Notes under the pieces: model-generated
What the model was told of the DNA's origin: nothing
The model's input: only the letters and a program-made list of their open reading frames with translations
The model's database searches: none
Origin: Eledone cirrhosa
Taxonomy: Eukaryota
Reading direction: 5' to 3'
Assembly (NCBI GenBank): GCA_964016885.1
Contig: OZ024740.1
Location: forward strand, 190,650,001-190,714,000
Length of the DNA stretch: 64,000 nucleotides
Translations under genes and position numbers: made by a program
Shown here: piece by piece, positions 26,688 through 34,663 of the stretch
Numbering within the stretch: position 1 is the stretch's first letter
Layout of the letters: the number at the start of each line of letters is the position of its first letter

Positions 26688-27653
26688 AAGTAGCGGAGCA
26701 AGGGGTTATCAAACAATTCTCTGAATAAATTAAAAAAACGATTTAAATAATCACGTGTTATATTGCTGTTACCGACGGTTTCATCATTCCAAAAGATTGG
26801 AAATCCATAGAATATCCAATGGAAAGAAACGAATCTTCAGACAGCCTTTTTCCACACTATAAGGTTGCAAGCCCTACAGTAAGTAAATATTTTGCTTCCT
26901 GCCCAACGCATGCGGCCAGGCCGTTAAAATGACACACACGCAAAATCAGGTCGCTGAAAATAGCTGTTTATTATAAACAGGTTGATATTGCCACTACAAT
27001 TAGCATTATTCAACGTTTTGTTCTCTACATAAGGAGAACAATTATAAAAGTGGATGAATACTTCAACTGCTACTATGTACTTGTAGAAATATGCAAGTTG
27101 TTTATAATTTTTTTTGGTTCAATGGTACTAATTCAAGATACCAGAAGAATATAAAAAGTAGCGGAGCAAGCGGTTATCAAACAATTCTCTAAATAAATTA
27201 AAAATCGATTTAAATATTCACCTGCTAATTTTAGTGGCAATATCAACATGTTTATAATAAACAGCTATTATCAGCGACCTGATTTTGCGTGTGTGTCATT
27301 TTAACGGCTTGACCCCATGCGTTGGACAGGAAGCGAAATATTTACTTACTGTAGGGCTTGCAACCTTATAGTGTGGAAAAAGGCTGTCTGAAGATTCATT
27401 TCTTCCCATTGGAAATTCTATGGATTTCCAATCTTTTTGAATGATGAAACCGTCGGTAACAGCAATAGAACATGTGATTATTTAAATCGTTTTTTTTTTA
27501 AATTTGCTTAGAGAATTGTTTGATAACCGCTTGCTCCGCTACTTTTTATATTGTTCTGGTATCTCGAATTAGTACCATTGAACCACAAATATTATAAACA
27601 ACTTGCATATTTCTACAAGTACATAGTACCTGTTGAAGTATTCATCCACTTTT
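26688..27653. mobile_element. Tandem-plus-inverted HHR element with about 468-bp unit in (TA)n
   Basis: AAAGTAGCGGAGCAAG at 26688 and about 27156; 27232-27653 is a permuted reverse-complement copy. Confidence 0.88.
27383..27463 (+). ncRNA. Type I HHR with long stem II (mirror copy 26765-26845 on minus)
   Basis: GCTGT-CTGAAGA-T-TCATTT..TTGGAAAT..ATTTCCAA..GAATGA-T-GAAA-CCGTCGG-TA-ACAGC. Confidence 0.85.
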
Positions 27654-27770
27654 ATATATATATATATATATATATATATATATATATATATATATATATA
27701 TATATATATATATATATATATATATATATATATAATATATATAATTTATTTAAAATAAACAATACACTAT

Positions 27771-27848
27771 AATTACCTCATTACCAGAGATTTCCCGAAT
27801 AAAACGAATACAAGACACGTCCGCATTCGTTCATCAGACAAGGCAATT
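27771..27848 (-). ncRNA. Type I HHR with 11-bp stem I
   Basis: AATTGCCTTGT-CTGATGA-ACGAATGC..GTATTCGT-TTTATTCGG-GAAA-TCTCTGG-TA-ATGAGGTAATT; AATAAA then (TA)n downstream. Confidence 0.75.
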
Positions 27849-27924
27849 TAAAACCTAGTGAAATATTTGAAAAATCTCCTCAAGAAAGGCAAAAGTTTAC
27901 AGGGCCCACAAAATAAATAAAACT

Positions 27925-28100
27925 AATAATTGTTTCTACTTTAGGCACAAGGCCAGCAATTACCAGTGCATTACTGGTACTTTATTTTATCGACCCCGTA
28001 AGGATGAAAGGCAAAGTCAACCTCGGCGGGATTTGAACTCAGATGGTAAAGGGACGTAACTATGCTGGAAAGCATGGCGTCCGACCCTCTACCGATACTA
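27925..28100 (-). mobile_element. tRNA-derived SINE, slightly 5'-truncated
   Basis: GAGTTCAAATCCCGCCGAGGTTGACTTTGCCTTTCATCCTTACGGGGTCGATAAAATAAAGTACC on the minus strand. Confidence 0.9.
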
Positions 28101-28985
28101 ACTAATAATACAAGAGATGTATCAAAAATAAAAATAAAGATATATAGTAAGGGGATGTGTATAAATGTGTGTATATGCACTCATAAATATACATGTGTGT
28201 ATGTACAAAGGCACGTGTATATGAAATAATGTGCGCGTAAGTACATACATGAGGGCAAACATATTAGTTTATGTGTGACCACATATACGTATATAAAGAT
28301 ATATATGTTGAAAAGGGAATTGTAAGATAATGGAGTTAGCGTACAGACTGACTCAGGGACTAATGATTAAATATATACACATCAAGGTTGAAAGGACGCA
28401 CGCGTATAAACATACTCGCATGCGCAACCACATACATGTATGTGATATGTACAGGGAAGGGGGTGTAAAATGTCAAAGCAGTGTCAGCCTGAATGGTCGA
28501 TACAAATATAAAAATATGATTAATTAATGAACTAATATATAAGATAAGAATAATAAATTTAAGGCAAAGAGAAAGTAAGCGGGAGGGGTTACGATATAGA
28601 AAGTAACACTCGAAGAAAACAAATCAATAAAAAAGTAGAAAACATGCATATATTAGAACAAGCTCATACATATATATATATATATATATATATAGGAATA
28701 TATATATATACATACAGACAAAGACACCACATGCACATCTAATCACACGCACGCACGGGACCATATATATATATATATATATATATATATATATAAAACA
28801 CGTATACGTAAACGCACACATGCACACACACATTGACACATACATGCACACATACAAATGCGTTCGTATACATATACGAACATGTATACACATATATGCA
28901 CACATAAGCATACATATATAAAAAAAACAGCCGTATGAATAAATGGGTACAAACTATTTGCAAAAGGCTACACGCCGAAAGCAAA

Positions 28986-31772: not shown

Positions 31773-31791
31773 CATACATATATATATATAA

Positions 31792-32402
31792 TAGATGTAA
31801 TCTGTGTTTTTCGAATATTAATAATAACATTCGATTCGTTTACAATTATGCCTCAATTTTTAAAGCCAAGGCAAAACAAAATGAGGTTTGTTTGCATAAT
31901 TGCAAACGTATCGAATGTTATTATTAATATTCGAAAATTCATATTACATTTATTGTATTCATCCATGTAGAGCGAAAACTCTTTTTGTTTTATCTGAATG
32001 TGGCAAAGGCGGTCATTTATCGTTCGTATACAGGGAACTGACTGGCCGGTCCGCTGATATGTAAATCTGGCTGATCAGTGGATCTGCTAATATGCAGATC
32101 TGATTGATTAGTCAGTCTGCTAATATGAAATTCAGGCCGATAAGTCACCGTATATTTTAGAAAATAGCATATATTTTCACTAGCTCTGACAGTTCGCAGG
32201 TGAATAGTGAGCTGTACTGATGAAGGGTGATACTCAGAAACATTAGTGTCTGCAGATCTGTTTACATGCCAACACAAAAGGAAGAATGAGAGGGCTTATT
32301 CTACTGACATGGCTTTAAACATGAGGCTTGTTTGCATAATTGCAAACGAATCGAATGCGATTATTAATATTTGAAAAATTCAGATTACATTTACTGTATT
32401 CA
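31792..32402 (+). mobile_element. HHR element with 440-bp period and inverted 5' piece
   Basis: 31881-31961 repeats at 32321-32402; 31792-31849 is inverted relative to about 31895-31952. Confidence 0.78.
32212..32255 (+). ncRNA. Minimal type I HHR
   Basis: CTGTA-CTGATGA-A-GGGT-GAT-ACTC-A-GAAA-CATTAGTG-TC-TGCAG. Confidence 0.8.
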
Positions 32403-32404
32403 GC

Positions 32405-32808
32405 TTTGCAGGGGCAATCCGTCTTTTGGACTGTGTATTGATAAACGGATAAATATTGTAAGGGGATTACGCAATAGCGATTCCCTAAATTCAAGAAATA
32501 ATATCTTCACACGCTGTCCAAATGTCTGCAAACAGCTCTTACATAACTACAAAGCTCTGGATTGAACAACAACAACATTCTAATTTTCTAATGAACTCTA
32601 ATTTCTTTTCCTAACTTTCGCATTTATCTCCCTTACACCTTTCGCCCGTGGCTTTTATCGATTGGATGAAGTGACCGTTTCTGCGCAAGCGCGTTCATAC
32701 GGTTGTTCTTCCTGTTCTGTATAACCATCACCAGTACGAGCTGAAGATCAGCTAAGGTTAAACAATTGTTCTCGGTATGGTGAACTAACTGTTGTGTTAC
32801 CACTTATG
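32405..32808 (+). mobile_element. Second family D PLE 3' end
   Basis: RGNPSFGLCIDKRINIV..IFTRCP..LLHNYK then UTR and HHR remnant at 32737-32774; homologous to about 30131-30530 in opposite orientation. Confidence 0.78.
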
Positions 32809-33267
32809 TCTCTCTCTATATATAGTTGTGTTTTTGCTCAATTTCTAGATAATATAAATCAAGTATAGATATATGTATGCAGGATTTGCAGAATATATTT
32901 CTCATCAATCTATATTTTTGCACTAAATAAATATACTAAAAGTATATTTACGACTGAAACATTCTGAATTTCATAGATTATGAATTATCATATATATACA
33001 CTCTGTTTTGGTTTTAGTCACCTGATTTCAGTTGTTGTACACCCTAGAATTATTCATGTGCCCAGCACGTATCTTAGAACTAGTTATTGTATACTACAGT
33101 TACCAATATCCCTCATAAATAATAGTAAAACAAAATTGTATATTATTAATATTTCTACAGAACAAATCGCACACACACATTTCACGCACAAACACACGCA
33201 TATATATCTATATCTATATATATATATATATATATATATATATATATATATATATATATATATATAT

Positions 33268-34663
33268 AAAATGAGTCCCTCATCAGCGATTTGCCGACGA
33301 TCATAGATATTTCATTGCATTAAAAATCATATACCTCACGTCGGTGCAATAATAACCAAAATAAGTTATTAGGACAATTGAAACGCGTAAAGCGAGTGAG
33401 ACAGGAGAACAACAAAGAGTATAGCTAACCGTAGGGGAAAGAAACAAGCTTCAACATTATTCTGTTTAGCATAAGCTAGGTGAATATATGAGCGCTTTAG
33501 AAAAAAGACCTGACACGAACGATGGCCATGTGAGAAGAGAGAAAAATAGCCTTCGTGGTGTACAGAATGAAATGAAGAGAGGAGAAACAGTGAGTGAGTG
33601 AAAGTGTGAGGAAGAGTTAACTGACATGACAGAGGGGGCGAAAGAAGGTAGGAGAAACAGAGTGAATGGGGGAGCAGTAAGAGAGAGAGAGAAAAACACA
33701 CATAATCGCAGTTTGGGTAAATATATGTAATAAAATATAGAGAAAAATACTGCAGGTAGCACATGGATAACATGTAATAAAATGAGTCCCTCATCAGTGA
33801 TTTGCCGACGATCATAGATATTTCATTGCATTAAAAATCATATACCTCACGTCGGTGCAATAATAACCAAAATAAGTTATTAGGACAATTGAAACGCGTA
33901 AAGCGAGTGAGACAGGAGAACAACAAAGAGTATAGCTAACCGTAGGGGAAAGAAACAAGCCTCAACATTATTTGTTTAGCATAAGCTAGGTGAATATATG
34001 AGCGCTTTAGAAAAAAGACCTGACACGAACGATGACCATGTGAGAAGAGAGAAAAATAGCCTTCGTGGTGTGTCGGCAAATCACTGATGAGGGACTCATT
34101 TTATTACATGTTATCCATGTGCTACCTGCAGTATTTTTCTCTATATTTTATTACATATATTTACCCAAACTGCGATTCTGTGTTTTCTTCTCTCTCTCTC
34201 TTACTGCTCCCCCATTCTCTCTGTTTCTCCTACCTTCTTTCGCCCCTCTGTCATGTCAGTTAACTCTTCCTCACACTTTCACTCACTCACTGTTTCTCCT
34301 CTCTTCATTTCATCCTGTACACCACGAAGACTATTTTTCTCTCTTCTCACATGGCCATCGTTCGTGTCAGGTCTTTTTTCTAAAACGCTCGTATATTCAC
34401 CTAGCTTATGCTAAACAGAATAATTTTGAAGCTTGTTTCTTTCCCCTACGGTTAGCTATACTCTTTGTTGTTCTCCTGTCTCACTCGCTTTACGCGTTTC
34501 AATTGTCCTAATAACTTATTTTGGTTATTATTGCACCGACGTGAGGTATATGATTTTTAATGCAATGAAATATCTATGATCGTCGGCAAATCACTGATGA
34601 GGGACTCATTTTATTACATGTTATCCATGTGCTACCTGCAGTATTTTTCTCTATATTTTATTA
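33268..34663. mobile_element. Fold-back of tandem about 510-bp units in (TA)n
   Basis: About 1.55 units at 33268-34071 (ATGAGTCCC at 33271 and 33782) joined to about 1.15 inverted units at 34072-34663. Confidence 0.9.

Follow-up and report, generated by a model that had tools for sequence, protein, structure and literature searches.

We analysed a 64,000-nucleotide (nt) stretch of the genome of Eledone cirrhosa (assembly GCA_964016885.1, contig OZ024740.1, forward-strand positions 190,650,001 to 190,714,000; hereafter the 64-kb window) and found four elements, A to D, in which a partial tandem repeat is joined to an inverted copy of the same unit. Our data indicate that these elements and their neighbours are most likely non-coding RNAs copied in trans by endonuclease-bearing Penelope-like elements (PLEs), most likely those of the (TA)n-targeting Hydra clade. 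We consider it probable that a double-strand cut by the PLE endonuclease in (TA)n leaves two ends that prime at two fixed sites, and that the resulting cDNAs extend inward, on a multimer that has not been cleaved or on a circle, and join by microhomology. The architecture is the known PLE signature, and its shape will not surprise a specialist; what is new is the set of non-autonomous members described here. Our additions are modest and comprise a rule by which each inverted pair takes one short and one long end, TA microhomology at both ends, passengers that lack a hammerhead ribozyme (one with a transfer RNA (tRNA)-like unit), and two direct joins between families.

Layout of the elements

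Periods and arms were obtained from self-BLAST of the window and from pairwise alignments, which verified the places, periods and coordinates of all four elements (Table 1), with repeat E-values of 1e-13 to 0, far past chance expectation. The preliminary description of this DNA had the tandem joined to an inverted copy at a different phase in every case. We found such a shift in A, B and D, where the outer ends are offset by 109, 37 and 50 nt (up to 59 in D, allowing for TA-like ambiguity), while the outer ends of C lie within 8 nt of the same phase. The arms of A (26688-27652) are 91-93% identical and those of B (31187-31770) 79-82%; the measured period of B is 242, that is, 258 minus a 16-bp deletion in the second copy. 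Element C spans 31791-32402, and D (33269-34661) has a period of 510-511, two arms longer than one unit and 97-98% identity between them. Arm identity across the four elements therefore spans 79-98%, and this 2-21% divergence marks them as old insertions and rules out read chimeras or artefacts.

(TA)n lies next to both outer ends of A, B and D, in decayed form at the right end of B, and next to the left end of C, whose right end adjoins a decayed PLE endonuclease fragment instead. The surrounding DNA is AT-rich, microsatellite-dense animal sequence, and a likeness by eye to Hydra-1_Obim and to an octopus SINE (short interspersed element) hints at an octopus. We found no similarity among the four units (blastn, word size 7, E < 0.01), and the same settings returned no further copy of A, C or D in the window and only two matches of 22-27 nt to B. 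Partial tandems with 5' truncation, as in PLEs, are present in A, B, C, D and a retrozyme-like array (1.14-6.84 units), so each of these has an arm longer than one unit. Two shorter versions of the layout had also been proposed, at 8931 and 3801. The first is this array of 6.84 units with a 38-41-nt inverted arm (outer-end offset 58 nt), and the second, at 3804, consists of two short inverted arms with no tandem.

Table 1. Positions of the elements, related copies and their parts in the window
Feature	Position	Strand	Details
Element A, left arm	26688..27222	-	535 nt, 1.14 x 468-bp unit; minus strand is sense; 3' end at (TA)n is the short site
Element A, inverted right arm	27223..27652	+	430 nt, 0.92 unit; 109-nt downstream tail, which meets (TA)n
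Type I hammerhead of A	26765..26846	-	CTGAAGA core at 26840; short self-complementary stem III
Second type I hammerhead of A	27382-27463	+	core at 27388
Element B, left arm	31187..31534	-	1.41 x 258-bp unit; polarity read from tRNA-like segment
Element B, inverted arm	31537..31770	+	0.91 unit; 37-nt tail
tRNA-like segment in B	31283..31355	-	T5 run begins 12 nt after segment; Rfam RF00005
Inverted copy of B tRNA-like segment	31566-31636	+	Rfam RF00005
Element C, short inverted arm	31791..31868	-	78 nt (0.18 unit); centre near-palindromic; no real tail
Element C, tandem arm	31878..32402	+	1.19 x 440 bp
Element D, left arm	33269..34071	.	1.57 x 510-bp unit; polarity without independent marker
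Element D, inverted arm	34072..34661	.	1.16 units; central junction blunt; 50-nt tail
Retrozyme-like array	8932..12158	+	6.84 x 466-468 bp; hammerhead per unit; 38-41-nt inverted arm, tail sequence only
Family F short head-to-head pair	3804..3988	.	one short and one long end; no tandem; offset 90
Family F long head-to-head pair	52510..54435	.	hammerheads 52699 (-), 54336 (+); one long and one short end
Family F single-arm copy	47891		ends at long site
Family G head-to-head insertion	21704..23827	.	putative Hydra-clade open reading frame remnant 22466-23301 (-); short end left; read-through 107-nt tail right
Family G pair	14169..15234	.	short end left; tail-only arm of about 47 nt right
Family G minimal pair	52368..52489	.	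tail-only arm of about 50 nt left; 72-nt short-end arm right
Hammerhead-bearing partial tandem	28965..30117	+	655-bp period; cores 29098, 29755; inverted arm not found
Putative Hydra-type PLE 3' end, decayed (family X, endonuclease C-terminus)	32403..32824	+	80% identical to 30113-30521
Head-to-head join of two PLEs	30113..30914	.	putative Hydra-type X (-, to about 30743) and Neptune-type Y 3' end (+, from 30731-30739)

Polarity, fixed ends and the mode of insertion

RNA polarity was read from strand markers, namely hammerheads, an open reading frame (ORF) or the tRNA-like segment. The RNA sense runs from the centre outward, that is, head to head, in all nine marked pairs (the array, A, B, C, two of family F and three of family G); this count leaves out D, the inverted pair 2401-2620/3152-3372 and the palindromes at 15810, 38185, 55413 and 58567, which carry no marker. 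With outward sense, both 3' ends lie next to (TA)n, which is what priming of one cDNA by each flank would give. We compared end phases in families F and G, which are present in several independent copies that are 80-93% identical. Ends at the short site of F lie at 3804 and 54435, and those at the long site, 90-94 nt further, at 3988, 47891 and 52510; the corresponding ends of G lie at 14169, 21704 and 52489 and, 107 nt further, at 15234, 23827 and 52368. Thus, each of the 11 ends joined to (TA)n falls on one of two sites in its family, and all five inverted pairs take one of each (a divergent F-like copy at 13838, with no clear (TA)n end, is left out of the count). These two fixed sites are the PLE tail already described (PMC3846280, PMC8557442). 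A tail at one end only is present in nine of ten pairs (37-109 nt), C with its 8 nt being the exception, and the three tail-only arms, at 8932, 15234 and 52368, are as expected if two primers share one RNA.

The recurrence of these ends in F and G did not bear out the proposal that arms are permuted because they were primed at different points. A model in which priming from both target ends starts at freely varying positions of a circular RNA is in our view very improbable, although it would account for arms longer than one unit in all of A to D and the array, for arms that read through hammerhead cut sites and for the private variants of the array, and although animal retrozymes accumulate as circles (PMC7229834). 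Such private variants (seven of seven array substitutions are confined to one unit, and a 2-nt microsatellite indel is common to units 3 and 5) are what repeated copying of one template would give. They fit a rolling copy, but a young, homogeneous donor array or sequencing error would yield them equally well. Moreover, B and D contain no ribozyme for circle formation, and hammerhead cleavage is dispensable in vitro (PMC11167929). A circle with fixed start sites is compatible with F and G, which contradict only free permutation on it. The proposed circular or multimeric RNA is upheld as a template longer than one unit, whereas the circle, though compatible, has no advantage since a linear uncleaved multimer fits equally well.

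Homology of 2 nt or more with (TA)n is present at 8 of the 11 outer ends that we scored, where about 24% (19-27%) would be expected (P about 0.001, or 0.006 if the left end of A is scored 1); the ends with less homology are B-left, B-right and C-left. Central junctions, read by eye, show either overlaps of 0-2 nt (D 0, the array 2, the G pair at 52368 1, A about 2) or short fillers. The tabulation of arm phases and junction microhomologies that the preliminary description had called for thus gave, within the window, two fixed outer sites in F and G and these inner overlaps or fillers. Pairwise alignments indicate that in A, B and D neither arm could be copied from the other without entering the flank. 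Since these arms outrun each other, each needed a template that was continuous across unit junctions.

This geometry bears on fold-back or self-priming, in which one cDNA or antisense RNA copies itself (PMC3846280) and the tail at one end results from trimming during endonuclease resolution (PMC8557442). We regard this explanation as unlikely. Element C would suit it, with its near-palindromic centre and equal outer phases, as would other palindromes in the window (15810-16110, 55413-55693, 58567-58650, 38185-38237) and the junction palindromes reported in rotifer PLEs (PMC3846280). However, the array, A, B and D have inner phases that are 55-260 nt apart, the template would run out 37-109 nt early in A, B and D, and tail-only arms would require the primary arm to be trimmed by the whole tail. 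Priming from both target ends, as had been suggested, is supported by the head-to-head polarity and by arms in A, B and D that simple fold-back could not produce.

A further set of alternatives, namely transposons of the DNA class resembling miniature inverted-repeat transposable elements (MITEs), template switching at the DNA level in fragile (TA)n, or an assembly artefact, we consider barely credible. The inverted repeats are flanked by TA, and one 220-bp inverted pair in the window has neither hammerhead nor tandem. On the other hand, the two termini of A, B and D differ in sequence, hammerheads and remnants of reverse transcriptase (RT) and endonuclease have the same layout, and arms that diverge by 2-21% are unlike read chimeras. 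A search for terminal inverted repeats that run from the same base was negative for A, B and D, whose termini are offset by 37-109 nt; a target-site duplication of fixed length would not be discernible inside (TA)n. None of A to D is a MITE, which agrees with the preliminary description.

We therefore return to priming from both target ends. The endonuclease would cut both strands of a (TA)n tract and, because (TA)n is self-complementary, both new 3' ends would be equivalent primers. Reverse transcription from each end would then start at either of two fixed sites, specific to the family and about 40-110 nt from each other, aided by 2-6 nt of TA-like pairing. The two cDNAs would extend inward on a template RNA that spans unit junctions and hammerhead cut sites without a break, whether as a religated circle or as a multimer that was never cleaved. 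They would halt at variable points and be joined through 0-2 nt of microhomology or a short filler. The predicted insertion has its arms head to head, the partial tandem in one and the tail in the other.

Several observations weigh against this mechanism. The nine polarity pairs come from only six families, A to D are present in one copy each, so that fixed ends concern F and G only, and the link to the tail in G relies on a single read-through copy that contains a TA-like stretch. Element C, without a tail and with a palindromic centre, fits fold-back; B and D have no hammerhead, D has no polarity marker, and the polarity of B assumes that the tRNA strand is the RNA strand. Variant sharing among copies (3:1 in D, 2:2 in A) does not separate twin priming from fold-back. 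No unit of A to D resembles any autonomous PLE in the window. Finally, PMC11167929 reports start sites that are non-homologous to the cut DNA and no difference between strands, in contrast to the microhomology and the pairing of one short with one long end found here.

We also put forward, tentatively and with more doubt than confidence, a stronger version in which the inverted-plus-tail structure of PLEs reflects obligate asymmetric twin priming. Here an RT-endonuclease dimer would set the cut (TA)n ends on two fixed sites of one RNA, circular in the hammerhead families; the same machinery might mobilise hammerhead-free RNAs, including tRNA-bearing B, and might load two RNAs to give chimeric insertions such as 30113-30914. 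Because the copies are short, young and non-coding, the question of how tandem and inverted structures arise becomes countable, and the pairing rule, the tail-only arms and the TA microhomology lead to genome-scale predictions that separate twin priming from fold-back.

Coding remnants, ribozymes and neighbouring features

We asked whether the window holds PLE coding remnants. The ORF remnant of family G (22511-23167) matched 3960 proteins at E<=0.001 in an exhaustive protein search, while word-index protein searches with the G fragment gave no match. Among its 17 matches of at least 650 amino acids, 16 contain DKT or DKS, 14 contain CxCx4-6CP and 11 contain R/K-W-K/R/H. Segments 22466-23301 (G) and 30375-30743 (X) are similar to proteins whose full-length members have Hydra motifs, and these full-length relatives map back to both remnants by tblastn. 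The remnants retain a CxCx5C linker or a C-terminal CxxC region; the linker is present in G, whereas DKT and RWK are seen in the database relatives only, the N-terminus being missing in the window. We accordingly take G and X as probable Hydra-type PLE remnants, an assignment by motif rather than by tree. The head-to-head layout of G surrounds its ORF and so ties the architecture directly to a PLE. The PLE affinity that had been proposed is thus supported by hammerheads, by the apparent Hydra-type ORF remnants and by head-to-head polarity. None of the 17 full-length relatives hit A to D by tblastn, the remnants that they matched being those of G and X only, and, on their sequence, A to D are neither autonomous Hydra elements nor other autonomous PLEs. 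Pfam recognised one of eight ORF fragments in the window (GIY-YIG, 48972-49304) and RT in one of eight relatives.

Hydra and Neptune ORF remnants in the window also end at (TA)n. A third decayed PLE-like remnant with RT and GIY-YIG lies at 48972-50435 (-; Pfam PF01541, E 1.5e-4), and 17090-20797 (-) is a decayed, near-full-length PLE with direct pseudo-long terminal repeats at 17083-17580 and 20308-20797 and its 3' end at (TA)n. Within this PLE, the segment 18410-20049 contains a CX2CXCX2C linker, which we read as typical of Neptune. Two joins lack (TA)n between the partners, namely X to Y within 30113-30914 and, at 32402-32403, element C to an X fragment in the same direction. For the joins at 30731-30743 and 32402-32403, two-template or template-jump events are possible origins, as are successive insertions at the edge of a tract. 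We disfavour 30113-32824 as one nested element, since both X ends lie at approximately the same phase and (TA)n separates the inner pieces.

Our own descriptor scan for the type I motif, on which all hammerheads rest, found strict matches at nine loci in the window and none in each of eight dinucleotide shuffles. These loci include both arms of A, C (core at 32217), five of seven array units, 29098 and family F; the remaining two array cores carry private substitutions. By eye, A and the array agree with the Hydra-clade table (PMC8557442 File S2) in their cores and in the U-U pair at the base of stem II, and the hammerheads of A, C and the array resemble those of that clade. A relaxed scan that allowed one core mismatch found no hammerhead in B or D. 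Element D holds half a core only, and a permuted (type II-like) hammerhead there was rejected by eye because stems II and III fail to pair. Truncation points at 5' ends coincide with hammerhead cut sites in none of five arms (two of A, C, the array and 28965), the nearest lying 16 nt away by hand measurement. Among the best 150 of 276 Rfam matches there was no hammerhead family; apart from two tRNA hits these were microsatellite-driven microRNA noise. Folding z-scores for isolated hammerheads and tRNA-like segments were weak (-2.6 to +0.6) and are excluded from the support. Family G has a variant hammerhead core (U4 to A) with a UU cut site in four of four aligned copies (21727-21775 -, 23655 +, 14190-14235 -, 52425 +). 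Isolated type I hammerheads also occur at 13838 (-) and 27837 (-) in small segments that adjoin (TA)n.

The two tRNA-like segments of B score 36.4 and 29.7 bits with Rfam RF00005, both above the gathering score of 29. ARAGORN calls a tRNA in the left copy only, and a T5 run follows the tRNA-like part in two of three copies. We take the head to contain internal promoter boxes, assigned by eye against the consensus. Element B does not begin at its tRNA head, as a tRNA-derived short interspersed element (SINE) would, and both arms run upstream of the tRNA-like segment, which indicates that the template was not an RNA polymerase III monomer.

Further repeats lie elsewhere in the window. A 609-bp partial tandem at 23963-25120 (1.9 units, 90%), flanked by two (TA)n tracts, has half a hammerhead core and no inverted arm and likely belongs to the same class. 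The 220-bp pair 2401-2620/3152-3372 is 97% identical and carries neither tandem nor hammerhead; it may be either a true MITE or a further PLE pair. At 15810-16110, 30979-31176, 38185-38237, 55413-55693 and 58567-58650, segments that are palindromic or form hairpins lie close to (TA)n; they lack a polarity marker and are candidates for the fold-back type. Where the two arms meet in the long G and F pairs, tandem microduplications of 14 bp (23291-23334) and 16 bp (53324-53424) are consistent with slippage fillers. About eight copies of a 170-190-bp SINE-like repeat, 75-92% identical, lie at 1684, 16245, 27925, 35104, 42065, 45792, 46086 and 62773; we presume that it resembles an octopus SINE. 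A 6-bp A-rich unit at 25623-26018 is repeated in 66 perfect copies, an unusual purity that is possibly recent or a feature of the assembly.

Comparison with known systems

Twin priming in L1 produces a head-to-head inversion with microhomology at the inner junction; its second primer lands at variable internal sites and its arms do not overlap. The elements described here share the inversion and the inner microhomology, but both of their sites are fixed and their arms often overlap by hundreds of nucleotides. Another parallel is the Poseidon PLE PAc, a predicted dimer that in vitro cuts and extends both strands and has two RT start sites that bound the tail, without a need for hammerhead cleavage (PMC11167929). 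The double cut and extension, the two internal start sites and the AT-rich target match our proposed scheme; the PAc start sites are described as sharing no homology with the target and as the same for either strand, and the accessible parts of that paper say nothing of inverted products. Our literature search found no printed twin-priming model of PLE inversions and no tRNA-derived PLE passengers; both absences are weak, since older Penelope and subscription literature is thinly covered and preprint supplements may list such elements. The Schistosoma repeat Sm-alpha, tRNA-derived, SINE-like and hammerhead-bearing (PMC2770079), is a precedent for tRNA-bearing B, in which no hammerhead was found. 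PLE-type passengers of this kind can be mis-annotated as MITEs or SINEs.

Hydra-clade PLEs with an endonuclease include Hydra-1_Obim, an octopus family, and Penelope-13_HM (PMC8557442), and recently active Penelope families are reported in Octopus vulgaris (PMC13282606). According to PMC8557442, PLEs target (TA)n, form partial tandems next to which an inverted, 5'-truncated copy lies, and have a tail of 30-40 bp on one side. The same paper calls hammerheads universal in the Hydra clade and names the origin of the tandem and inverted structures and the microsatellite bias as unsolved. Our elements share with that clade insertion into (TA)n, partial tandems, an inverted, 5'-truncated head-to-head copy, a tail at one end and a type I hammerhead near the 3' end. 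They differ in that A to D are non-coding units of 258-510 bp, in that their tails measure 37-109 nt against the quoted 30-40 bp, and in that B and D have no hammerhead. Animal non-LTR (long terminal repeat) retrozymes, defined and proposed to be mobilised by PLEs in PMC7229834 and bioRxiv 10.64898/2026.07.22.740005, are non-coding tandem units of 150-900 bp with type I hammerheads, a description that the array, A, C and 28965 resemble. By the sequence tests for retrozymes, A, C and the array qualify as candidate members, whereas B and D fail the hammerhead test and are not filed as such, though they behave like PLE passengers. The accessible parts of the two retrozyme descriptions mention neither inverted arms nor tails, whereas the full PLE insertion signature is present here, and this signature ties retrozymes to the PLE machinery.

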